Part shown: piece by piece, positions 2 through 63,443 of the stretch
How the letters are laid out: each line of letters starts with the position of its first letter
How positions within the stretch are numbered: position 1 is the stretch's first letter
The notes under the pieces: model-generated
The model's input: only the letters and a program-made list of their open reading frames with translations
The model's database searches: none
Told to the model about the DNA's origin: nothing
Source of the DNA: Armatimonadota bacterium
Lineage (GTDB): Bacteria > Armatimonadota > UBA5829 > DTLH01
Length of the DNA stretch: 64,000 nt
Assembly (NCBI GenBank): GCA_039680575.1
Contig: JBDKSP010000021.1
Location: forward strand, 13,239-77,238
Direction of reading: 5' to 3'
Program-made: the position numbers and the translations under genes

Positions 2-460
2 GACAGCACGACCGGCGTTCTCAAGACCACCGGTATTGTAATGATAAACGGCGATCTTGAGATTAATGGGAGGAATGGCAACCTCACATATGAGGGTAAC
101 GGCACCTTGTTTTCTACAGGTGACACGAGTATACACTGTAATGTACTTCCGAAATCGGGATTTCCATTGACAGACCGTCTCGGCATCATCGCCGGTCAGA
201 GTATGGGAGTTGCTACCGGCAGCGGCGATTCACAACTCACTATGGCGCTTGCAATGTATGCGCAGTATCGCATAAGTATAGGCAAGCAATGCGAAATAGG
301 CGGAACATGCGTGTCGAGTTTCTTCTCGATGAAGAACGTTCCGCATATCTACCAGGTGCCTAAGCTGTCCGAGAACCTGCCGCCCGGATTGCCGGGCTCG
401 GATCCGATCTGGATAGTCTCCATTACTATCAAGAGTTGGCAGGATTTGGGTGGCGGCTAG
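2..460 (+). CDS. 3' end of a hypothetical Gly/Asn/Thr-rich repeat protein; the ORF is open at the left window edge
   Basis: The reading frame is open from nt 2 and stops at 460. Composition is Gly/Asn/Thr-rich and beta-helix-like (INGDLEINGRNGNLTYEGNG). No family recognised. Confidence 0.3.
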   Translation, partial: DSTTGVLKTTGIVMINGDLEINGRNGNLTYEGNGTLFSTGDTSIHCNVLPKSGFPLTDRLGIIAGQSMGVATGSGDSQLTMALAMYAQYRISIGKQCEIGGTCVSSFFSMKNVPHIYQVPKLSENLPPGLPGSDPIWIVSITIKSWQDLGGG

Positions 461-532
461 ACTGATAAGATATTGAGGATAAAGGGACGTAGCGAGTATA
501 CTGCTTACGTCTCTTTTTTATGGGGATAGGAG

Positions 533-1348
533 ATGGCATTCCCTATACCTCATTACAAACAATTGGGGGTAGAGAAAACGCGTATAACATTTCTTGGCAC
601 GGGAACATCGCACGGCGTGCCTGTGATAGGCTGTAAGTGTCCGGTCTGTACATCGCAAGACCATCGTAACCGCCGGACAAGGACTTCAGCATTGATCGCA
701 TACAGGGGAAAGCACATAATAATAGATACGGCGCCTGAGTTCAGGCTCCAATGTCTCGCAAACAATGTGGACTATCTCGATGGTGTGCTGTTTACGCACG
801 CGCATGCTGACCACATCTTTGGCCTGGACGATGTCCGCGGGTTCAACAGGATACAAAAGAAATCGGTTCCATGCTACGGATCACAGGATACCCTCGCTGC
901 CATAAGGCGTGCGTTCGCGTATATTTTCATCGAGACTCAGGAGGGTGGGGGAAAGCCGAAGATCGAGCTGAACCCTGTAGACCGGCCATTCGAGTTCGAG
1001 GAGATAAAGATAACGCCGATTCCCGTGATGCACGGTGAGGTCCCGGTGTATGGCTACAGGATCGGAAAACTTGCCTATGTCACGGACTGCAGTTGTATTT
1101 CAGATGAATCGAAGGAACTTCTTCGCGGATTGGACCTTCTTATACTTGGGGTAGTCCGGAGAAATCCTCATGAGACGCATCTTTCACTTGTGGAAGGTGT
1201 GGAAATAGCAAAGGAGCTTGCTCCAGGAATAACGCGTTTCGTGCATATGTCCCATCATCTTGAACATGAAAGCACAAACAATGAGCTTCCGTCTGGAATA
1301 GAGCTTGCATACGACGGATTGAGTATAGAATTATCCGACCCGGATTAA
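533..1348 (+). CDS. MBL-fold metallo-hydrolase (PhnP/YycJ-like)
   Basis: Metallo-beta-lactamase motif THAHADH with downstream Asp/His ligands. Length 271 aa, typical of the PhnP-like phosphodiesterase subgroup. Confidence 0.75.
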   Translation: MAFPIPHYKQLGVEKTRITFLGTGTSHGVPVIGCKCPVCTSQDHRNRRTRTSALIAYRGKHIIIDTAPEFRLQCLANNVDYLDGVLFTHAHADHIFGLDDVRGFNRIQKKSVPCYGSQDTLAAIRRAFAYIFIETQEGGGKPKIELNPVDRPFEFEEIKITPIPVMHGEVPVYGYRIGKLAYVTDCSCISDESKELLRGLDLLILGVVRRNPHETHLSLVEGVEIAKELAPGITRFVHMSHHLEHESTNNELPSGIELAYDGLSIELSDPD

Positions 1349-1500
1349 GTCGAATCTCATGAATGGGTAATAAATCCGACACTATGCCGTCTTGTTACGT
1401 TAAGATTGCAATTGGTGTGTTGTCTGCGAATTTATGTGGTAGTATACGCATGTAGCCGCGCATTATGCATGGTTTACGGTTTTTGGAGGATAGAAGGAGA

Positions 1501-3837
1501 ATGAGAGTCAACAGACAGATGATCTGCCTGGTGCTGTCTCTGGCATGCTTGTGTTCGCTCGTCTCCGGGCGGACTGCAGCTCAGGCTCTTTCTTCATCAA
1601 ACCTTAATATAACATCTTCTCTCAGTAATTCAGAGTTGGTAAGCGATCTCTTTGTCGGTAAGGGGACTGTCGGTCCGTATATCCTGAGTTGGAAGAACAT
1701 TGAAGACGGAAGCGAGACAGTCACGATCGACGGACAGGTCCTTTCATCCAAAAAGGATTACAATATCAACTATTCCTCAGGATCATTGACACTGCAATCA
1801 TCTCTTCCTAAGGACAAGGTTGCCAGGGTAAGCTATAAACGTATCATTGGCAAATCACAGGCGAACAGTGGAACAAGTCTTCCTATAAATATGCGGCTTT
1901 TCGACCGTGGAAGCGGCAGTCTCGACGTTATCGGCCTCTATAGTTCGGGTGACAGCAAGAATAAGGAGAGCGGGATGTCGGTCTATGGGCTGAGCGGCGG
2001 GATGAAGCTGGGCGAAGGCTCGGATATATCGACTAAATTTATAGTAGACCAGCAGAGCAGTGAGAGCGGCAAAGACGCAGGCTTGTCTGATCGTTCAGCT
2101 ATGCAGCTTTCAGCCGCTACAGCGTTTGGAGGGCTTTCATTTAAAGGCTCGTTTTCGCGAGCAGGAGAACAGTTTACCTCTGCGAAGGAATACGGGTTCC
2201 AGAGTGCAAAGGAGTTGACCGATCTTTCGGCTGTATTCGGCAAACAGACTGATGTGGTCTATGCATCGTTCAGTTATAAGGAGCAGGAAGATCTGGGCGG
2301 CAATGTAAAAGGCGCAGCCCAGACCAGCGGCGAGCAAAAAGTAGTCCTGAACCTGGAGAATGCTCCAAAGATGACGATCTCCCGCTCGACAACTGAAAAA
2401 GAACAATCAAGCGGCACAAAAACAGGTACTACCATAGAAAGTCTTCAGCTTGATAAGAGCTTTGGAAAGAAAACGACTGCTACCGCGATGATGCAGACGT
2501 CGGAAGTCGATAATGGTCAAACAAGCGAAGAGACCAAAACTACGAGTTTCGGGATAAATACGACAGCAGTAGACAACCTGCAGGTTCAGAGCTCACTGAC
2601 GCAGAAAGACTCGGATAAAAACGGCGAAGAGACAGGATTCAATTTTAGTGCGAAAGCTGTCCTTGGACGCAGGTTGAATATGGATGCGTCCTACCTAAAC
2701 TGTGACTCGGATGCAGCAGGAACTGAGTCTAAAACAACTATAGGGATGTTGGTAGACCCGTTCGATTGGCTGAAGTTTCAGAGCAAATTGACGTGGAAAG
2801 ATTCCGATAAGACAGGCGGAGAGACAGGTCTTGACCTGGGACTGAAGGCAACGCCGGGTAAGCGGCTTTCGCTGAACGCCGGATACTCAAGCACCGATAC
2901 CGATGAAAAAGGCCAGGTTTCAAAGACGGATGTGAAGGTCTCGAGCAAACCTCTTGACAGTCTGGACCTGACGGCGGGTGTTTCGCGTTGTGACACAGAT
3001 AATGACGGCCAAACTACCACTGATGTTTCCATCGCTGCGAGACCCAGTGACCAGATGAAGATCGAAGGCGCGTATTCCGGTAAACAAGCAGACCAGGGAA
3101 GTGACGAGCAGCAGCGTTCTGTGAAGCTGGAAGCGAAGCCTACCGATTACATGAAGATAGCAGCAGGACTCGGTGAAAAAGAGGTAGATGTTCAGCTCAA
3201 GACAAGCAAGGAAGCTGGTGTCGAACTCACTCCAAGCGATAAATTGAAGATTACATCTTCGATCAAGGAGTGTACTGACGGTCAGCAGGTTACGACCGTA
3301 AAGGACTATTCAGGTTCGGTTAAGCCTGTGGACTATTTGGAAGTATCCGGCGCTTATAAAGACCGCGAGGACTCTACGGCTGAAATTGCCGACAGTAAAT
3401 CAATGAAACTCGCACTGGGAGCGTCTGAGTCTTTCAAGATTACCGGGCAGTATTCGTATAACCCGGAAGATAAAAAAGGCAATATACAGCGGCTGTCCAG
3501 TTCGACTCTCGGCCTGGAGATGAAGATCGGTATACTTAGTATAACAGGCGGATATGCAGAGAAAGACGACTACATAGCCGGGAGTACACAGATTGAAAGA
3601 GAGTTCGGACTGCGCCTCCCGCTTTTCGGAAATGGAAAGCTGTATACAGGCTACAAGCTGTCTGAAGCTGCCGCAGCAGCGGATCTATCGACGGAAACAT
3701 ACTCGGTAGGTTACACGCACGATCTCGGTTCACGGTTCAATCTGGCGCTATCAGGTGAACTGACACGTTCTACACAGGAATCGCTTTCGCTGGATGAGGA
3801 ATGCAAAGCAACGGCAAAGCTGGGAATGAAGTTCTGA
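1501..3837 (+). CDS. secreted Ser/Thr/Asp/Lys-rich repeat protein, probably an outer-membrane beta-barrel (C-terminal ...KLGMKF)
   Basis: GGAGG-like RBS ahead of the ATG at 1501. Hydrophobic signal peptide (MICLVLSLACLCSLVSG). Internal tandem repeats of KDSDKxGxETG(F/L)xxxxKA. Amphipathic beta-strand pattern near the C-terminus, which ends in Phe like outer-membrane barrels. Confidence 0.45.
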   Translation: MRVNRQMICLVLSLACLCSLVSGRTAAQALSSSNLNITSSLSNSELVSDLFVGKGTVGPYILSWKNIEDGSETVTIDGQVLSSKKDYNINYSSGSLTLQSSLPKDKVARVSYKRIIGKSQANSGTSLPINMRLFDRGSGSLDVIGLYSSGDSKNKESGMSVYGLSGGMKLGEGSDISTKFIVDQQSSESGKDAGLSDRSAMQLSAATAFGGLSFKGSFSRAGEQFTSAKEYGFQSAKELTDLSAVFGKQTDVVYASFSYKEQEDLGGNVKGAAQTSGEQKVVLNLENAPKMTISRSTTEKEQSSGTKTGTTIESLQLDKSFGKKTTATAMMQTSEVDNGQTSEETKTTSFGINTTAVDNLQVQSSLTQKDSDKNGEETGFNFSAKAVLGRRLNMDASYLNCDSDAAGTESKTTIGMLVDPFDWLKFQSKLTWKDSDKTGGETGLDLGLKATPGKRLSLNAGYSSTDTDEKGQVSKTDVKVSSKPLDSLDLTAGVSRCDTDNDGQTTTDVSIAARPSDQMKIEGAYSGKQADQGSDEQQRSVKLEAKPTDYMKIAAGLGEKEVDVQLKTSKEAGVELTPSDKLKITSSIKECTDGQQVTTVKDYSGSVKPVDYLEVSGAYKDREDSTAEIADSKSMKLALGASESFKITGQYSYNPEDKKGNIQRLSSSTLGLEMKIGILSITGGYAEKDDYIAGSTQIEREFGLRLPLFGNGKLYTGYKLSEAAAAADLSTETYSVGYTHDLGSRFNLALSGELTRSTQESLSLDEECKATAKLGMKF

Positions 3838-5267: not shown

Positions 5268-5451
5268 GGTAAGAGTTCACTCTTGCAAGAATTATATATC
5301 ACCCTGAGCAACCAGCACGTCATCATGGATAGAAGCACGTCACCCTGAACTTGATTCAGGGTCCACTTTCTTCCTGGATGCTGAGTCAAGCTCAGCATGA
5401 CGTTGTGATAATTCAGCATGGTGTTGTACTCATCAACTCTGAACTATTACC
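5268..5451. mobile_element. MITE-like palindromic repeat, copy A
   Basis: Near-identical to 25910-26091 and the reverse complement of 15164-15363, 18536-18643 and 28303-28571. Imperfect 18-bp TIRs (ggtaagagttcactcttg / caactctgaactattacc). Nested palindromes ccctgaa..ttcaggg and gctgagtcaagctcagc. Confidence 0.7.
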
Positions 5452-11208: not shown

Positions 11209-11366
11209 TCCAAAATCCGAAAACTCCTCAAAATGGAACGTTTCTATTTGGGATATACGTAGGCTTTCAGGGGAATGATTAGAGTAGGATTCACTACCGT
11301 GCTGTGGTCCATTTCAGGGCAGAATGGAGTGATATCGAAGTGAATTTCAGTATAGATACATACAAT

Positions 11367-11693
11367 ATGGAAAGCGGTGTGCCGGTCATAAAACTGACCG
11401 GTGAAGTCGACGTCTATACCGCGCCGCAGCTAAAGCAGCAGATGATAGGAATGCTCGAAGCAGGCGCGAATCAGATTCTCATTGATCTTACGGAAGTCGA
11501 GTACTTCGACAGCACAGCTCTTGGTGTGCTGATCGGGGGCCTCAAGCGGATGAGGGAACGTGACGGTAACCTATCGCTGATATGCCCGAACCCAAGGATC
11601 CGCCGGGTTTTCGAGATAACCGGGCTGGACAAGATTTTTGACATCTACAACAGCGCAGATGAAGCAAAAATCGCGATCCAACTGGTACCGTGA
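11367..11693 (+). CDS. anti-sigma factor antagonist (STAS domain, RsbV/SpoIIAA-like)
   Basis: STAS fold signature LTGEVDVYTAPQL...DLTEVEYFDSTALGVLIG, with the phosphorylatable Ser in DST. The ORF is open from 11304; the ATG at 11367 is preferred. Confidence 0.8.
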   Translation: MESGVPVIKLTGEVDVYTAPQLKQQMIGMLEAGANQILIDLTEVEYFDSTALGVLIGGLKRMRERDGNLSLICPNPRIRRVFEITGLDKIFDIYNSADEAKIAIQLVP

Positions 11694-11766
11694 TCACAAT
11701 GAGAATCGGTATAACCGGCGGAGCATTACTCCCGTTGGTTTCAGTAAGAGAAGGGAGCGTGGTTCG

Positions 11767-12183
11767 GTGGATGCTCAAAGTGAGCCCGCTGTTGTAGAGC
11801 TCAGGATACCTTGCAGGCCCGAATACGTCGGCGTTGCAAGACTGGCATTACTTGGCGTTGCAAGCAGGATGAAATTCTCATACGACCAGGTAGAAGATGT
11901 CAGGCTCGCTGTCGGAGAAGCCTGCACGACCTCGGTCGAGTGGGCCACAAAGAATAATCGGGCAGATACTGATATCGTTGTCAGAAGCAGTATCGCTGAT
12001 ACGAAACTGACAGTAGATATCATTGACAGTTCAGGTGAGCGGCGAGAGGCGCCCGCTGATCAGGAGAACGATAACGAGCCTGAAAGCCTTGGCGCGCTGC
12101 TGATAACGCTGCTCGTTGACGAGGTTACAGTGACACCAATTAACGGTGGCACACATGTCAAAATGGTTAAATATGCGGGTTAA
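11767..12183 (+). CDS. anti-sigma factor serine kinase (RsbW/SpoIIAB-like GHKL ATPase)
   Basis: HATPase_c_2-like block VRLAVGEACTTSVEWA. Position between the antagonist and the sigma gene. The start is uncertain: the ORF is open from 11638, and an in-frame GTG at 11767 is used here. Confidence 0.65.
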   Translation: MDAQSEPAVVELRIPCRPEYVGVARLALLGVASRMKFSYDQVEDVRLAVGEACTTSVEWATKNNRADTDIVVRSSIADTKLTVDIIDSSGERREAPADQENDNEPESLGALLITLLVDEVTVTPINGGTHVKMVKYAG

Positions 12184-12187
12184 TGCT

Positions 12188-12961
12188 ATGGCAACGCGAA
12201 GAAAGGGTGGCGTTGCGGGATGGACAGACGAAGAGACTGAGCAATTGTTTCGTCGTTATACCAGGACGCGAGACCCTCAAATTCGCGATCAGCTTGTCAT
12301 AATGCATCAGAACCTGGTGCGTTTTTTGGCGGGCAAGTTTGCGAACAGGGGTGAGGCACTTGAGGATCTCGTTCAGGTCGGCGTCATCGGGCTTATAAAT
12401 GCGATTGACAGGTTCGATCCTGAGCGGGGAACCAAGTTCTCGACCTATGCGACTCCAACAATTGTAGGTGAGATCCGACGCCATTTCCGCGACAAAGCAT
12501 GGAGCTTGAAAGTACCCCGCCGCCTGCAGGAGCTGAACCTTGCTGCAAATAAGGCTGCGGAGAGGTTAAGTCAATCACTCGGTCGCCCACCAACCATCCA
12601 GGATATTGCAAATGAAGTAGGCGCGACGGAAGAAGAGACGCTCGAAGCAATAGAACTTGGAAACGCCTACGACACGGTCTCTCTGGACAGCAAGCTGTCT
12701 CATGAGGGGGAATCCGCACCGCTTACTCTTGCGGAATTCGTAGGTGGGATGGATGGGTCGCTGCAGAACATAGATACTTACGGTGACCTGAAACAGGCGA
12801 TGGAGTGCCTTGAACCAAGAGAAAAGGCGATTATTTACTATCGCTTCTTTAAGGATATGTCTCAGACTGAGGTCGCGCGGAGACTGAACATCTCACAGAT
12901 GCATGTTTCCAGACTTCAGCAAAAAGCGCTGAAACGGTTGAAAGACCTGCTCAACGAATAA
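12188..12961 (+). CDS. RNA polymerase sigma factor, group 3 (SigB/SigF-like)
   Basis: Region 2 LVQVGVIGLINAIDRFDPERGTKFSTYATPTIVGEIRRHFRD, and a region 4 helix-turn-helix (MSQTEVARRLNISQMHVSRL). The ATG lies 4 nt after the stop of the kinase gene. Confidence 0.85.
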   Translation: MATRRKGGVAGWTDEETEQLFRRYTRTRDPQIRDQLVIMHQNLVRFLAGKFANRGEALEDLVQVGVIGLINAIDRFDPERGTKFSTYATPTIVGEIRRHFRDKAWSLKVPRRLQELNLAANKAAERLSQSLGRPPTIQDIANEVGATEEETLEAIELGNAYDTVSLDSKLSHEGESAPLTLAEFVGGMDGSLQNIDTYGDLKQAMECLEPREKAIIYYRFFKDMSQTEVARRLNISQMHVSRLQQKALKRLKDLLNE

Positions 12962-14352: not shown

Positions 14353-15114
14353 GTGGGAGAAATAGTGGAATTTATAAATCCAGAGCCAAGTGAGGTTGCA
14401 GGCAAACAGGCCAGAACTGCAGTTAAGCGTAATGGGCCAAAATGGGAGATAGATGCACGTGAAAAACTGAAAGCTTCGATAAAACGATTCAATAAGGCCC
14501 TTGTTGATTTAAAGGATCGAGATGCAAATGAAGCAGATACTCGATTATTCGTTACTGATGTATTATGTGATGCTCTTGGGTTAGATAAATATACAGAATT
14601 ATGCACAGAGTATCGTGTAAAGGGTGAGTATGTAGACTATGGCATCCGTTTAGAAAATGATATGATTGCATTTGTTGAAGTTAAGCGGATAAATACGAAA
14701 CTAGGGACAAAGCATCTTAGGCAAGTTCAGAATTATGCGGTAAATGAGGGAGTCGAGTGGATTATTCTTACTAACGGAGCGCAGTGGCAGGTATATCACT
14801 TAAGTGGTGGGCTTCCACTCATCACTGATCTTGCAATAGAGATAGATTTGCTTGGCGATATTCCAATGGGGCAGAAGGTAAACACGATGTTTTATCTTAC
14901 ACGTGATGCCCTAAAACGCGGGAAGCTTATGGATCTTTGGCAGGAAAAACGAGTTACTGCTCCTAATTCTTTAGCGCGGATATTACTGTCTGATTCAATT
15001 GTTATTGCCGTTAGAAAAGAGCTGAAAAAGGCAACTGGCTATAATATAGATCCCACCGAAATAGTTCGCTTGGTTAAGGAGACGTGCTTAAAGCCAGAGT
15101 GTTTTGAGAAGTAA
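14353..15114 (+). CDS. stand-alone HsdR-N/Mrr-like PD-(D/E)xK nuclease-fold protein
   Basis: Motifs NEADTRLFVTDVL, VDYGI and FVEVKR, followed by YAVNEGVEWIILTNGAQWQVY, match the N-terminal nuclease domain of type I restriction R subunits. The gene and its 5' spacer are markedly AT-rich relative to the flanks. Confidence 0.6.
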   Translation: MGEIVEFINPEPSEVAGKQARTAVKRNGPKWEIDAREKLKASIKRFNKALVDLKDRDANEADTRLFVTDVLCDALGLDKYTELCTEYRVKGEYVDYGIRLENDMIAFVEVKRINTKLGTKHLRQVQNYAVNEGVEWIILTNGAQWQVYHLSGGLPLITDLAIEIDLLGDIPMGQKVNTMFYLTRDALKRGKLMDLWQEKRVTAPNSLARILLSDSIVIAVRKELKKATGYNIDPTEIVRLVKETCLKPECFEK

Positions 15115-15163: not shown

Positions 15164-15363
15164 CGTAAGAGTTCAGAGTTGATGAGTATAATATCATGCT
15201 GAACTACCACAACGTCATTCCGAGCTTGACTCGGAATCCAGGAAAAACTGGACCCTGAATCAAGTTCAGGGTGACGTGTTTGCCGTCCAGGGTGACGTCC
15301 TTCCATAATGACGAGTTAGTTGTTCAGGGTAATATATAATTCTTACAAGAGTGAACTATTACC
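15164..15363. mobile_element. MITE-like palindromic repeat, copy B (inverted relative to copy A)
   Basis: TIRs gtaagagttcagagttg / caagagtgaactattac. Internal gctgagcttgactcgg... and ccctgaatcaagttcaggg palindromes. Confidence 0.7.
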
Positions 15364-18535: not shown

Positions 18536-18643
18536 GTAAAGAGCTCAGGGTTGATGAGAATAGCATCATGCTGGATTATCACAACGTCATGCTGAGCTTG
18601 ACTCAGCATCCAGGAAGAAAATGGACCCTGAATCAAGTTCAAA
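18536..18643. mobile_element. MITE-like repeat, truncated copy C (same orientation as copy B)
   Basis: Shares about 100 bp with copies B and E (gttgatgag...catcatgctg...caacgtcatgctgagcttgactcagcat...ggaccctgaatcaagttca). The distal half is absent. Confidence 0.6.
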
Positions 18644-18818
18644 GCGAATGCGTCTAAATTTTGAAACGCGAATTACGCGGATTTAACGGATTTTGCGATT
18701 CAGAATCTTTGGTAACGATTCGAAATAAGAGCGTTTGCCCTCCAAACTGCCTCTAGCCACATCGTATCCCAACTGATAAAATAACAACTGTATTCGATTA
18801 AATAGACAGCAGGTTGTT

Positions 18819-19733
18819 ATGGCTGATAAATACTATGTTGCCGGGATCGACGGCGGCGGGTCTAAAACAGAATGCGCGATAGTGGACCAGGACGGGCTTT
18901 GTGTGGCCATCGGCCTCGGTGGTCCTTCTAATATTTTTTATGCGGATATTTCAAATGTAATCGAGTCTCTCGATACAGCCATGGCTTCCGCAATTGAAAA
19001 CGCTGGTGAACACGTGAAAGTCGTACTCACCGGATGCACTCACCGGGCAGCGCGAATTCCCGAAGTTAAGGCTCGGATATCGGAACGCCTGGGCGGGGAT
19101 GTCCGCCTGTATACTGAGGGGGAAGCCGCGCTGGGAAGCGCCGGGTTTTCAGAGCGTTTCGGGATAGCTCTCATCGCAGGTACCGGCAGCAGCGCATTCG
19201 GATTTACACGTGATGGAAAGCGCTGCCGTGCCGGAGGGTGGGGGATGCTCTTGGGCGACGAAGGCAGCGCGTATGATATTGCCGTAAGCGGGCTAAGGTC
19301 CGCCACGCGGATGATGGACGGAAGAGGCCCGAAAACGGTAATTCTCGACCGTGCCTGCGAGCACTTCTGTATTTCCCCCGGCTTTGAGTCCTTCGTTCAG
19401 TTCTTCAAGGGTACGCCGAGGGATAAAATTGCATCGTTTGCGCCGATGGTCACAGCCGCTGCTCGTGAAGGCGATACGGCAGCTGAAACGATTGTTTCTA
19501 ATGCCGCAAGGGACCTTGCGGAGTGTGTCATCGCATTAGCGCGTAAGCTATTCTCACAGGATGATGAATTCCCGGTAGCGCTTCACGGCGGAGTTATGCG
19601 TGACAGCAGGACGGCGGAATGCATAACCGAGTTGATAAAAGAAAGATACCCTAATGCCGATGTCCGCACTCCGATATACAGTCCCGGTGTCGGGCTCGCG
19701 CTTTTTACACTGAATGATATGGTAGGTGGATAA
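18819..19733 (+). CDS. BadF/BadG/BcrA/BcrD-type ATPase (N-acetylglucosamine-kinase-like)
   Basis: ASKHA-superfamily N-terminal phosphate-1 loop VAGIDGGGSKTE and the ADENOSINE motif IAGTGS. Length 304 aa. Confidence 0.7.
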   Translation: MADKYYVAGIDGGGSKTECAIVDQDGLCVAIGLGGPSNIFYADISNVIESLDTAMASAIENAGEHVKVVLTGCTHRAARIPEVKARISERLGGDVRLYTEGEAALGSAGFSERFGIALIAGTGSSAFGFTRDGKRCRAGGWGMLLGDEGSAYDIAVSGLRSATRMMDGRGPKTVILDRACEHFCISPGFESFVQFFKGTPRDKIASFAPMVTAAAREGDTAAETIVSNAARDLAECVIALARKLFSQDDEFPVALHGGVMRDSRTAECITELIKERYPNADVRTPIYSPGVGLALFTLNDMVGG

Positions 19734-20928
19734 TTTGGTTGATGTCTTATTTGAAATTGGTCCAAAAATCATCCAAGAGGAGAATATCGACGGTTATAAA
19801 CGGATAACCGGAGAGTTTTGGACAGCTCGCCAGAGGCAGATGCACTCCATCCACTACGCCGTGTCATACCGCGCGTCTTTCAAGCCGGAATTGCCGAATT
19901 ATTTTATAAACCGTTATTGCAGCGACTATAAAAATGACATGGTGCTCGACCCGTTCGGCGGCCGAGGTACAACAATATTGGAAGCCAATATTCTCGGTTT
20001 TTCAGGCTATTCGAACGATGTGAACCCGCTTTCCGAACGGATCGCTCGCCCGAAATGCCGCCCGGTTACGCTGGAAGAGGCCAGTAAGCATTTAGATCGG
20101 ATCGATTTCAACGCCGATGTCGATATCAGCGATTACAGCGACTTTTCGCCCTTTTATCACATAGACACATACCGGGAGATGCTTGCGCTGAAGGAGTATC
20201 TGAAGAAAAACAGGTCGGACGCTGATTGCTTTATAGAGATGATAGCCCTTTCTCGCCTGCATGGACACTCGAGAGGCTTCTTTTCGGTCTATTCATTTCC
20301 TCAAATATCCATTCTAAGTGCCGCGCAGGCAAGGATCAATGAGCAGCGGAACCAGACTCCCGAATACAGGCAGGTCAAGCCGCTTATTTACCAGAAAGCA
20401 AAGAGAGTCCTAAAGGATTTCACCGGAGAAGAGATCGTAAAGCTGAATGAAACGGCCGCAAGGAACATCTTCACCTGCGAAGACAGCCGGAATATGGCCA
20501 GCATACCCCAGGACTCTGTCACGCTTATAGTCACTTCACCTCCGTTTCTGAATAAAGCCGACTATATTCAGGATAACCGGCTCGAGTTCTGGTTCCTGGG
20601 CATAGATCCTGAACCGCTGAAAGAGAAAGTAGTCCAGACCAAAAATCTCGATGAATGGATAGAGTTTATGAGGGACAGTATCCGGGAGATGTATCGGGTG
20701 TTGAGGACCGGCGGGGTCGCTGTGATAGAGGTCGGGGATGTGAAGCATAAAGGACATACGATTAATCTGGATGAGGTAATCGTCGAGCTTGGTAAAGAGG
20801 CCGGGTTCAGTGTCGTCGAGGTACTGATAAATTTCCAGCAGTTCACGAAACTCGCAAACTGCTTCAATGTAGATAACATGAGCAAGGGAACGAACACAAA
20901 CCGCCTCGTTATCATCAGAAAGGATTGA
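19726..20928 (+). CDS. site-specific DNA amino-methyltransferase, alpha-class topology (N4-cytosine or N6-adenine)
   Basis: AdoMet motif I VLDPFGGRGTT at aa 76, and catalytic motif IV SPPF at aa 270, separated by a putative target-recognition region. The GTG start as called overlaps the upstream gene by 8 nt. Confidence 0.65.
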   Translation: MDNLVDVLFEIGPKIIQEENIDGYKRITGEFWTARQRQMHSIHYAVSYRASFKPELPNYFINRYCSDYKNDMVLDPFGGRGTTILEANILGFSGYSNDVNPLSERIARPKCRPVTLEEASKHLDRIDFNADVDISDYSDFSPFYHIDTYREMLALKEYLKKNRSDADCFIEMIALSRLHGHSRGFFSVYSFPQISILSAAQARINEQRNQTPEYRQVKPLIYQKAKRVLKDFTGEEIVKLNETAARNIFTCEDSRNMASIPQDSVTLIVTSPPFLNKADYIQDNRLEFWFLGIDPEPLKEKVVQTKNLDEWIEFMRDSIREMYRVLRTGGVAVIEVGDVKHKGHTINLDEVIVELGKEAGFSVVEVLINFQQFTKLANCFNVDNMSKGTNTNRLVIIRKD

Positions 20929-20979
20929 GTTTCCATACCCAGCGGTATAAGTAAACGGCATCCTTAAACGGAGGGAAAC

Positions 20980-21258
20980 ATGTCGTTACCGTATTACGGC
21001 GGGATGAGGCACATTCATACCACTTCCGACAGATTCGATCAGGCCTGTGGCGAGATAAGACGACTATCCGATGAAGATGTGGGGCGGGTCTTGGAGTTTA
21101 TATACGGATTGAAGCGGGAACGCGGAGATGTGACCGGAAAAGCCGCAGGAAACCCGGAGTTGCTTGTAGGACACGCTGGTAAGTTCAGTTTTAATGCGGG
21201 TGAAACCGAAACCCTGCTCAAAATGGTGCTCGAAGCAAGGGAGACGGTTTCCGAATGA
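20980..21258 (+). CDS. putative antitoxin partner of the VapC toxin
   Basis: A 92-aa acidic protein whose stop overlaps the VapC start (ATGA). No recognised antitoxin fold. Confidence 0.4.
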   Translation: MSLPYYGGMRHIHTTSDRFDQACGEIRRLSDEDVGRVLEFIYGLKRERGDVTGKAAGNPELLVGHAGKFSFNAGETETLLKMVLEARETVSE

Positions 21259-21659
21259 AGGAATACATACTCGACATCGACCACATGGTCGGGCTGATGG
21301 CCGGCAATGAGACACTTGTCAGGCGGATCGGTAAGGTCAAAAAGGAAGAAAGCCGCTTCGGAATAACACTTGCGATCCTTGGCGGCCTCTATTTTCTTGT
21401 TCGATCAAGCCAGCAGATGGACATCAATATGGCCGCACTGACGGAACTTGTAAGTGACCTGCAGATATGGGAGTTCGACAGAGGCTCAGCGGAGATCACA
21501 GGTGAAATATTGACCCAGATGCACTCGCTGAACCGCCCAATAACCCCGATAGAAGCGCAGATAGCCGCCGTTGCCCGACAAAGGCAGGCTGTGCTCCTTA
21601 CGGGGCTTGAACGCTTCATCTATGTCCGCGATATTGAACTTCAGAACTGGCTGCGGTGA
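21255..21659 (+). CDS. vapC: PIN-domain toxin (VapC family)
   Basis: PIN acidic residues in YILDIDH, FDRGSAEITGEI and IEAQIAAVA...LLTG. Length 134 aa. Four-nt overlap with the upstream small ORF. Confidence 0.7.
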   Translation: MKEYILDIDHMVGLMAGNETLVRRIGKVKKEESRFGITLAILGGLYFLVRSSQQMDINMAALTELVSDLQIWEFDRGSAEITGEILTQMHSLNRPITPIEAQIAAVARQRQAVLLTGLERFIYVRDIELQNWLR

Positions 21660-25909: not shown

Positions 25910-26091
25910 CACTCTTGCAAAAATTATATATCACCCTGAGCAACCAGCACGTCACCCTTGAACTAAGGAGTTTTGGTATACCTGAAACTCTTCCTGGATG
26001 CTGAGTCAAGCTCAGCATGACGTTGTGGGCATTCCGAATGACGTAGTGTTCGTTCAGCATAATGCTATATTCATCAATTCTGAACGCTTAC
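25910..26091. mobile_element. MITE-like palindromic repeat, copy D (same orientation as copy A)
   Basis: About 85% identical to copy A across 180 bp. Lacks the first 10 bp of the left TIR. Confidence 0.7.
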
Positions 26092-28302: not shown

Positions 28303-28571
28303 GTAAGACTTCACTGCTGATGAGTATAACATCATGATGAACCACCACAACGTCATGCTGAGCTTGACTCAGCATACAGGAAGAAAATGGACCCTGAATC
28401 TATGGATTTTCGGCTATAGCCGAAAATCTTCCGGGGAGAGTTTCAGGTAATACCTGAAACTCCTTAGTTCAGGGTGACGTGTTGGTTATTCAGGGTGACG
28501 TCCTTCCATCTATGGTGATGTGTTGGTTGTACAATTTGATGTAGGATCTCTCATTAAGAGTGAACTGTTAC
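28303..28571. mobile_element. MITE-like palindromic repeat, copy E (copy-B orientation, with an extra approximately 70-bp palindromic module)
   Basis: The same TIRs and core as copy B, plus the perfect palindromes ttttcggcta/tagccgaaaa and gagtttcaggta-a-tacctgaaactc. Lies in the divergent cysE / GH130 promoter region. TATAAT at 28584. Confidence 0.7.
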
Positions 28572-63284: not shown

Positions 63285-63360
<76 letters not shown>

Positions 63361-63365
63361 TTCGC

Positions 63366-63443
63366 GGCGGGTGTAGCTCAGTTGGTTAGAGCGCCAGGTT
63401 GTGGCCCTGGAGGCCGAGAGTTCGAATCTCTTCACTCGCCCCA
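63366..63443 (+). tRNA. tRNA-His (anticodon GTG) with encoded G-1 and CCA
   Basis: Extra 5' G before acceptor GCGGGTG. Anticodon loop TTGTGGC. T-arm GAGAG-TTCGAAT-CTCTT. Discriminator C. Confidence 0.85.

Follow-up and report, generated by a model that had tools for sequence, protein, structure and literature searches.

Several of the parts considered here have well-described counterparts, since alpha-order cytosine-N4 DNA methyltransferases (M.DraR1), orphan regulators that make N4-methylcytosine (m4C; LomA and HVO_0794) and modules in which VapC is paired with a DUF2281 protein are all already known. With these we compare a block of four genes on the forward strand of an Armatimonadota chromosome, in a stretch of 64,000 nucleotides from a metagenome-assembled genome (contig JBDKSP010000021.1 of assembly GCA_039680575.1, positions 13,239 to 77,238) that was analysed as a whole and is termed the window below. 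In order, the genes encode a BadF/BadG/BcrA/BcrD-family (ASKHA) protein (18819-19733), a DNA amino-methyltransferase (MTase; 19726-20928), a protein of 92 aa (20980-21258) and a PIN-domain VapC-like toxin (21255-21659). The explanation that we favour, with somewhat better than even confidence, is that this chromosome carries, next to each other on one strand, three units with separate functions: a solitary alpha-order MTase, probably specific for cytosine N4, a sugar kinase, and an independent toxin-antitoxin (TA) pair. An earlier note on the same DNA, made from its letters and a list of open reading frames (ORFs), had given the gene coordinates, the MTase motifs and the way in which each gene abuts or overlaps the next, and all of these are borne out.

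M.DraR1 is an experimentally established alpha-class m4C MTase with CCGCGG as its target (PMC6712171), and it is the protein, DR_C0020, that the window MTase matches on Deinococcus radiodurans plasmid CP1. Like the window enzyme it has FxGxG first, a recognition region in the centre and SPP[YF] last, the two being collinear for about 320 residues (41-362, E 1e-20) with DPFGG.GTT and VTSPP[FY]LN shared. The two are 22% identical, without conservation of the recognition insert, so the M.DraR1 motif is not transferable. Further, M.DraR1 is a plasmid-borne enzyme of one species with a cognate GIY-YIG nuclease (PMC10855626), whereas the window family is chromosomal, is present in several phyla and has no evident nuclease partner. 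The best sequence matches to both halves of the window MTase are beta-class PF01555 enzymes (M.PvuII, bdelloid N4CMT, TTHA0409, M.MboIIA, M.RsrI and CcrM), in which, as in the window MTase, a catalytic TSPP[FY] is followed by a helical segment; unlike them, the window MTase has its halves swapped and a helical insert of about 130 residues in between.

Conserved orphan MTases with regulatory or housekeeping roles have been described (PMC7708080, PMC5867850). Leptospira LomA, Haloferax HVO_0794 (m4C, CTAG), Dam and CcrM resemble the window family in being restriction-less, conserved within their lineages and vertically retained. LomA and HVO_0794 are not members of it, being of beta class with an N-terminal TSPPY, and so are functional analogues only. 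M.CbeI and DmtB, which are m4C enzymes of alpha class, were also set apart as belonging to another family than PF01555, in their case by annotation (D12 class, Dam-like, DPPY) and not by direct sequence comparison. No description of this particular alpha-order MTase family was found in the literature searched.

An alpha-order methyltransferase

When compared with PF01555 (N6_N4_Mtase) the window MTase scores 65.3 bits (cut-off 26.7, E 1e-17) in two permuted stretches: the start of the profile (positions 1-79, with motif IV) matches residues 265-368 and its motif I region matches residues 63-93. Because the pieces of PF01555 match in swapped order, the protein is, as judged from its sequence, a circular permutation of the beta-class N4/N6 DNA MTases and has the alpha order of motif I, target-recognition domain and motif IV that the earlier note had given it. 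The AF2 model (pLDDT 86.7, pTM 0.86) concurs in having a Rossmann core split by a helices-only insert, residues 116-244. End to end the protein matches PDLC03325, a REBASE-derived PADLOC model for Type II MTases (E 1.2e-100), several other REBASE-derived PADLOC MTase models are collinear with it, and public annotation already names the gene a DNA methyltransferase. Foldseek comparison of the model with the PDB returned generic Rossmann MTases (NNMT) at TM ~0.33, an uninformative outcome as the query is permuted and has a large insert.

Motif I, for AdoMet binding, is DPFGGRGTT (19948-19974, residues 75-83), with D75, P76, F77, G79, R80, G81, T82 and T83 being invariant in 27 homologues, and it aligns with motif I of TTHA0409, of the N4CMT chains (8s9n/8s9m) and of M.DraR1. 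The catalytic motif IV, TSPPF (20533-20547, residues 270-274, with SPPF at 271-274), is 196 residues beyond motif I and invariant in the same 27; it aligns to the TSPPY or TSPPF of TTHA0409 and the N4CMT chains and to VTSPPYLN of M.DraR1, and M.PvuII matches the region around it (residues 252-293). The all-helical insert between the two motifs, encoded by 20071-20457, is the putative target-recognition domain. It is strongly conserved, with an invariant block SRLHGHS.GFFS.YSFPQIS, as is a C-terminal loop, FTK.....F.....GTN..R. With about one quarter of all positions in the 27-sequence alignment being invariant, including long blocks in the helical insert, the conservation of both insert and loop argues for one conserved specificity.

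Which base is the likely substrate? Run against solved structures, a profile of the 27 family members finds, best first, TTHA0409, bdelloid N4CMT, M.PvuII, M.MboIIA, M.RsrI and CcrM, with a chain named only 'Methyltransferase' (8urk) and DpnA-type enzymes coming next. The three best characterised of these matches are m4C enzymes, and so are the closest characterised relatives of the window MTase itself (M.DraR1, N4CMT and M.PvuII). In view of the invariant TSPPF, the collinearity with M.DraR1 and the lead that m4C enzymes have among the profile matches, N4-cytosine is the more likely specificity, which upholds the leaning that the earlier note took from SPPF. The motif IV rule does have exceptions, with M.CbeI being an m4C enzyme that has DPPY (PMC3425538).

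In the layout envisaged, an H..SFKPELP segment and motif I are followed by the helical recognition insert, then by the part from TSPPF through motif VIII, and lastly by the C-terminal loop. Insert and loop together would bind one fixed short DNA motif, the target cytosine would be flipped into the TSPPF pocket and, most likely, its N4 would be methylated with AdoMet, with this happening across the chromosome. As a partner nuclease is not evident, the mark would have a housekeeping or regulatory role and not one of protection from restriction, by analogy with Dam, CcrM, LomA and the haloarchaeal CTAG enzyme.

Spread and descent of the family

A homology search with the window MTase gave 4,860 proteins at E 1e-5 or better, and there are full-length relatives more than 50% identical in Riflebacteria, Planctomycetota and others, the span at this level taking in Armatimonadota, Riflebacteria, Bdellovibrionales-like bacteria, Chlorobiales and other lineages. 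Scanning of species representatives yielded 190 loci for 185,579 species, almost all from metagenome-assembled genomes (MAGs); the count is a lower bound, the scan having relied on two peptide patterns. The labels of the loci are Armatimonadota, Riflebacteria/Ozemobacteraceae, Bdellovibrionales, Chloroherpetonaceae/Chlorobiales, Bacillota, Planctomycetota, Acidobacteriota and spirochaetes, and in a neighbour-joining tree of 76 MTase sequences the clades follow these taxonomic labels. Four of the related loci, which are designated by L-numbers (L039, L043, L056 and L057), are from MAGs labelled Erysipelotrichia, Candidatus Avigastranaerophilus and Methylomirabilis; their MTases nest inside the Riflebacteria clade, which suggests that the contigs are mis-binned or mislabelled.

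Phages and plasmids have little of the family. There were two distant matches in the phage collection (25-27% identity) and one on a viral contig in IMG/VR (28%), and the plasmid collection had MTase relatives at 35% identity or less only. A metagenome scan with the single MTase protein found three loci, two of them duplicating known ones (the L093 contig and an L006-like locus).

ORFs were called and clustered in all loci, with flanks of about 6 kb, and each lineage proved to have its own conserved MTase context. At some 30 Riflebacteria loci an xdhC-like gene is divergent upstream, while downstream a DivIVA-domain gene begins 10-26 bp past the MTase gene and a YggU/DUF167 gene comes next (for example L005 6001-8115 and L033 6001-7614); MTase-divIVA-yggU is an apparent operon conserved across Riflebacteria. 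At four Chlorobiales-type loci a gene for what reads from its sequence as a Fur-family-like regulator ends 13-15 bp upstream of the MTase gene. On a closed Ozemobacteraceae chromosome (OZ223236.1) a 16S-23S rRNA operon (L033 1-4342, reverse strand) is just past the xdhC-like gene upstream of the MTase. About 20 of the MAG contigs from Riflebacteria reach no further than 1.2-2 kb upstream of the MTase, and their ends there are probably assembly breaks at the rRNA operon.

A tree that follows taxonomy, contexts that are each lineage's own and near-absence from phages and plasmids are together the signature of a vertically retained solitary MTase and not of a roving restriction-modification (R-M) gene. 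Distinctive for the family are its unusually high conservation across phyla, its vertical descent and its lineage operons with divIVA or a cell-wall-sugar-kinase-like gene, and these provide a modest but real lead.

The kinase-like gene upstream

The earlier note's ASKHA, BadF-type assignment of the gene 5' of the MTase is secure, with its product matching PF01869 over residues 9-292 (151.7 bits, cut-off 31.5, E 3.7e-44). The translation has segments GIDGGGSKT, AGTGS and GGWG..LGDEGS, which we take to be kinase signatures, and the wider homologues are named N-acetylglucosamine (GlcNAc) or N-acetylmuramic acid (MurNAc) kinase by their sources. In these respects, and in being a full-length PF01869 protein, it is like NagK and MurK. 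Unlike NagK, it reaches 94 bits where the NCBIfam equivalog model NagK_SO3507 (NF046058) has a cut-off of 370, and coupling to an MTase is not described for these kinases. Its sequence makes it most likely a GlcNAc/MurNAc-kinase-like sugar kinase, a kinase-like relative and not an equivalog.

The BadF stop (TAA, 19731-19733) is overlapped by the GTG at 19726 with which the MTase ORF opens. A TTG at 19735, 1 nt past that stop, is more likely to be the MTase start, since the NCBI product of exactly this gene has the 397 aa that it would give and since a Shine-Dalgarno-like AGGTGGA is just upstream. Irrespective of which start is used, the two genes are tightly coupled. A BadF-MTase(-TA) transcript may start at a promoter-like site 5' of the BadF-type gene (18754-18782, forward strand; TAGCCA-17-TAAAAT with TG upstream); this site is a candidate only, and the count of such sites is not above shuffled expectation. 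Between the four genes no convincing terminator was predicted.

Besides the window, a kinase gene directly 5' of the MTase gene, with stop and start overlapping or abutting, is present in L001/L093, L006 (with L098), L008 and L094, where the MTases are 65-73% and the kinases 42-58% identical to those of the window. Coupling is confined to MTases that are 65-100% identical, in one Armatimonadota sub-clade, and six further kinase matches, on contigs with the same reported lengths as those of MTase matches, are probably co-located with them. The flanking genes differ between the coupled lineages, and therefore the pair has been kept through rearrangements. No kinase is beside the MTase in L003/L007, of the same sub-clade, where a paralogous kinase is next to a SIS-domain gene instead, nor in the distant Armatimonadota loci L009, L010, L014 and L075, nor in any other phylum. 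The BadF-type gene closest to that of the window (84% identity) is in L096; there it is followed by a transposase gene of IS200/IS605 type (Y1_Tnp; L096 6006-6434, reverse strand), after which the contig ends. We read kinase-MTase as a clade-specific operon with the MTase probably on the kinase promoter, so that in this sub-clade the MTase would be expressed with the sugar kinase.

Could kinase and MTase be a functional pair, with the overlap linking the state of sugar or cell-wall recycling to DNA methylation, for example by co-regulated expression? We consider this improbable. Such a pair would fit the retention of the junction despite change of flanks, even where identity is down to 42% for the kinase and 65% for the MTase, as well as the six further pairs of matches that are probably co-located and the envelope- or division-related nature of divIVA, the Riflebacteria partner. 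However, most lineages have the MTase without the kinase, L003/L007 of the same sub-clade among them, kinase relatives are widespread without any MTase, and sharing of an operon without a functional link is common.

DNA or RNA as substrate

That the enzyme methylates RNA (for instance N4 of cytosine or N2 of guanine in rRNA or tRNA), being a housekeeping enzyme evolved from a DNA amino-MTase fold, is unlikely. It would explain why identity exceeds 50% across phyla with the recognition insert almost invariant, which is unusual for a DNA MTase, and would sit well with vertical inheritance in housekeeping contexts, with weak PF01170/TIGR01177 matches at motif I and with the nearness of the gene to an rRNA operon in Riflebacteria. 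That operon, however, is divergent from the MTase with xdhC in between. Both halves of the protein match DNA MTases far better than RNA MTases, the 27-member profile finding nothing but DNA amino-MTases below E 0.01 and RNA MTases no better than at E 0.014, and the whole is collinear with a proven DNA m4C enzyme, M.DraR1. SPP[FY] with a long helical segment after motif IV, as present here, is typical of DNA N4/N6 MTases (Malone et al. 1995, as cited in PMC6712171), and the distribution over species, even with its count being a lower bound, is patchy.

The search for a nuclease

No restriction endonuclease gene is adjacent to the MTase, as the earlier note had observed, and annotation of about 10 ORFs on each side revealed no nuclease-like gene except for one lone HSDR_N ORF (14353-15114, forward strand, 253 aa; HSDR_N_2/MmeI_N-like and PD-(D/E)xK-like), four genes and 4.6 kb upstream. 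It has a nuclease-like motif, D95...E109-V-K111, the 1 kb around it has a GC content of 0.42, and a copy of a dispersed repeat adjoins it. In 84 other loci it has no counterpart, and as cognate nuclease it was rejected, being unlinked to the MTase in every other locus. A recurring nuclease-like neighbour cluster was not found beside the family in 80 loci, and neither there nor at the window locus is there the cognate endonuclease next to or near the MTase by which a Type II R-M system is recognised. The family does have the lineage conservation and vertical descent of an orphan, with the search for nucleases having covered the 64 kb of the window and 6-kb flanks elsewhere.

In L092 a protein of 753 aa (122-2383, forward strand) is a fusion of an HSDR_N-like domain with a different alpha-order MTase, of DPPY type (DPFGGSGVT ... 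TDPPYG). Its gene is upstream of a crp-like gene and an antitoxin-PIN pair, where relatives carry the TSPPF MTase, and it may mean that one MTase has replaced another at a single locus, or the fusion may be a Type IIG-like enzyme.

It is quite unlikely that the window MTase supplies the modification in a Type II R-M system with its nuclease at a distance, such as the HSDR_N ORF, or elsewhere in the genome. There is precedent in M.DraR1, whose cognate nuclease is encoded 10 ORFs away (PMC10855626). The D...E-V-K motif and local GC of the HSDR_N ORF, together with the fusion of HSDR_N to a different alpha-order MTase in the same relative position in L092, also count in favour; yet the similarity of the window HSDR_N ORF to the N-terminus of that fusion is marginal (E 0.003), and neither this ORF nor any nuclease-like cluster recurs in the other loci. 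Mobility and varied specificity are the rule among R-M MTases; this family, by contrast, is vertical and uniform.

The toxin-antitoxin pair

From the end of the MTase gene there are 51 bp to the 92-aa ORF, which in turn overlaps the PIN gene by ATGA (21255-21258). The 92-aa protein gave no Pfam match even at E up to 10, PF10047 included. About 14 sequences are known, some 11 of them close relatives that are all apparently from Armatimonadota, and as 11 orthologues have invariant motifs at the N-terminus (MSLPYYGGMRHI...DQACGEIR) and at the C-terminus (H.G.FSFN.GE...LL) this is clearly a real gene. 'Acidic', as it had been called in the earlier note, is true in mild form only, there being 15 acidic and 12 basic residues. 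A profile of the 11 orthologues, run against 1.84 billion representatives, found a handful of proteins of 77-95 aa (E 8e-8 to 5e-4); of the small proteins scanned four pass the DUF2281/PF10047 threshold and five match below it, and they share ..LP.E...V.DF..FL...GS.E.IL.H.G.W.FE.GE.E.LL. Another match of the profile, P0255 (1,847 aa), was rejected as a DUF11-repeat surface protein with a chance resemblance multiplied by 11 identical repeats. The structure model of the 92-aa protein has a pLDDT of 55. On these alignments the protein is a candidate for a divergent DUF2281-type antitoxin and is not VapB-like; it differs from DUF2281 in its extra invariant N-terminal MSLPYYGGMRHI and in having no Pfam match of its own. 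DUF2281 is listed as an antitoxin of PIN toxins in Synechocystis (PMC4963859), and work in E. coli has validated one such pair, VapC with DUF2281 (PMC12654330).

The PIN protein passes PF01850 (26.6 bits, cut-off 23.6), matches NCBIfam VapC models at full length (residues 4-132, E 1.6e-13) though below their cut-offs, and has tRNA(fMet)-specific VapC structures as its nearest solved relatives (E ~2e-7). Both this full-length alignment and the small upstream gene overlapping the PIN gene are as in VapC/DUF2281 and VapBC systems, and the DUF2281-like protein would neutralise the PIN RNase by direct binding. The conserved acidic active-site residues of Shigella VapC are Asp7, Glu42, Asp98 and Glu119. 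In the window PIN, Asp7 is present and Glu is at the Asp98 position, but at the Glu42 position there is Gly44 (codon GGC, 21384-21386, forward strand) where six orthologues have Glu or Asp, leaving the acidic set incomplete; the Shigella sequence in the alignment is as printed in the match to the solved structure from residue 30 onward, and the codon was read from the DNA. One A-to-G change from GAC (Asp) would give GGC. With Gly at this conserved acidic position the copy in the window may be weakened or inactive, or the Gly may be an artefact of the MAG consensus. Of the VapBC-like pair seen in the earlier note, the PIN/VapC-like toxin with its overlapping small antitoxin-like gene remains; the antitoxin is rather DUF2281-like, and the PIN protein is without one acidic residue.

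In all eight loci that have the gene for the small protein (the window, L008, L003/L007 and L089-L092) a PIN gene directly follows and overlaps it. Since in three of the seven loci other than the window (L089, L090 and L091) the pair is there without any nearby MTase, antitoxin-PIN is an autonomous two-gene module. In L092 the MTase neighbouring it is a different enzyme, the 753-aa fusion. The closest copy found, with a PIN 79% identical, is in L090 (3865-7751), another Armatimonadota contig, where antitoxin-PIN is directly beside aspS-hisS; in the window aspS-hisS is upstream of BadF-MTase, and the region is rearranged between relatives.

The earlier note's cassette, in which MTase and TA pair, with or without the kinase, would travel and work together as a mobile, addiction or defence module, is very improbable. 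In its favour, the four genes are on one strand with overlaps or gaps of 0-51 bp and no predicted terminator, their order recurs in L008 with different flanks, and in L007 and L092 no more than about 1.1 kb separates the pair from an MTase. Against it, the pair is alone in L089-L091, the MTase is without it in L001/L093, L006, L094 and every other phylum, the MTase family is vertical in lineage housekeeping contexts and essentially absent from phages and viral contigs, the window shows no mobility genes or GC anomaly near the block, the flanking 100-nt repeat is dispersed and not block-specific, and PADLOC recognises the MTase only and no multi-gene system. The alternative that the same note offered, of a regulatory MTase, is the better reading.

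Points that weigh against separate units

Some of what was found tells against three separate units, or against the nature ascribed to the first of them. Absence of an adjacent endonuclease within about 6 kb does not prove orphan status, given that the M.DraR1 nuclease is 10 ORFs away, and the window does have a nuclease-like ORF 4.6 kb upstream of the MTase. The overlap of BadF and MTase genes outlives change of the flanks in at least five lineages, a persistence that could reflect more than promoter sharing. Four of the eight TA loci have an MTase close to the pair, which is above what random placement would lead one to expect. Lastly, both m4C versus m6A and DNA versus RNA as substrate are judged from sequence for the family as a whole. 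As to nearness of MTase and TA pair, the common descent of these genomes is the best explanation and a sufficient one; the ancestral order is likely to have been kinase-MTase, a crp-like gene on the opposite strand and antitoxin-PIN, with differential losses afterwards.

The surrounding window

Local GC content at the block is 0.49-0.53 (window mean about 0.49), with no anomaly of composition, and integrase or transposase genes were not seen in the region around it. The approximately 10 ORFs annotated on each side are neighbours of housekeeping type: mnmA, rarA, a partner-switching sigma-factor module, a transporter, aspS and hisS, and further a GH-like gene, genes for TPR and thioredoxin proteins and a GH130 gene. 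The partner-switching module (11304-12961, forward strand) has a STAS anti-anti-sigma factor, an HATPase_c_2 anti-sigma kinase and a sigma-70-family factor, in tandem with overlaps. Near the end of the window, and unrelated to the block, are two adjacent tRNA genes (63285-63357 and 63367-63440, forward strand).

An intergenic repeat of about 100 nt, containing the palindrome GTCATGCTGAGCTTGACTCAGCATC, is dispersed in the window and looks like a REP/MITE-type element. Its copies are at 5377-5401 and 25989-26041 on the reverse strand and at 15167-15268, 18539-18641 and 28352-28376 on the forward strand, one of them being between hisS and the BadF-type gene. The palindrome has four matches at up to 3 mismatches where 0.01 would be expected. 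The repeats flanking the block were considered as ends of an element and rejected, the same repeat being also at 5.4, 15.2 and 28.4 kb. Among short palindromes of the whole window CTAG occurs 23 times versus 76 expected, GGCC, GTAC, GCCGGC and CGATCG are depleted also, and CCGCGG, the M.DraR1 motif, is at expectation. Scarcity of CTAG is common in bacteria, and depletion was rejected as a clue to the target of the MTase as it is not attributable to this enzyme.

Meaning

Annotators of this DNA would do well to name the gene a solitary DNA methyltransferase, probably m4C, and to treat the neighbouring TA pair as an unrelated and possibly decaying VapC/DUF2281-type module.

Dam, CcrM, LomA and the haloarchaeal CTAG enzyme exemplify the conserved MTases without a restriction partner that are known routes to epigenetic regulation in bacteria, and to our knowledge very few such regulatory MTases use N4-methylcytosine. 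Might the family then provide several uncultured phyla with a housekeeping mark like those of Dam and CcrM? The conjecture, doubtful as we hold it to be, is of an ancient orphan m4C MTase with one fixed motif, vertically kept since before the lineages split and wired by co-transcription to the expression of envelope or division genes (with divIVA-yggU in Riflebacteria and with the MurNAc/GlcNAc-kinase-like gene in Armatimonadota). If true, the adenine-based cell-cycle methylases would have in it their first widely conserved counterpart for cytosine N4. A methylation motif established for one member would extend to hundreds of uncultured genomes, and the methylation signal could help to bin metagenomes. 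For now the apparently solitary MTase of this Armatimonadota chromosome is a modest lead, pointing to the possibility that uncultured phyla share a conserved epigenetic system based on m4C.

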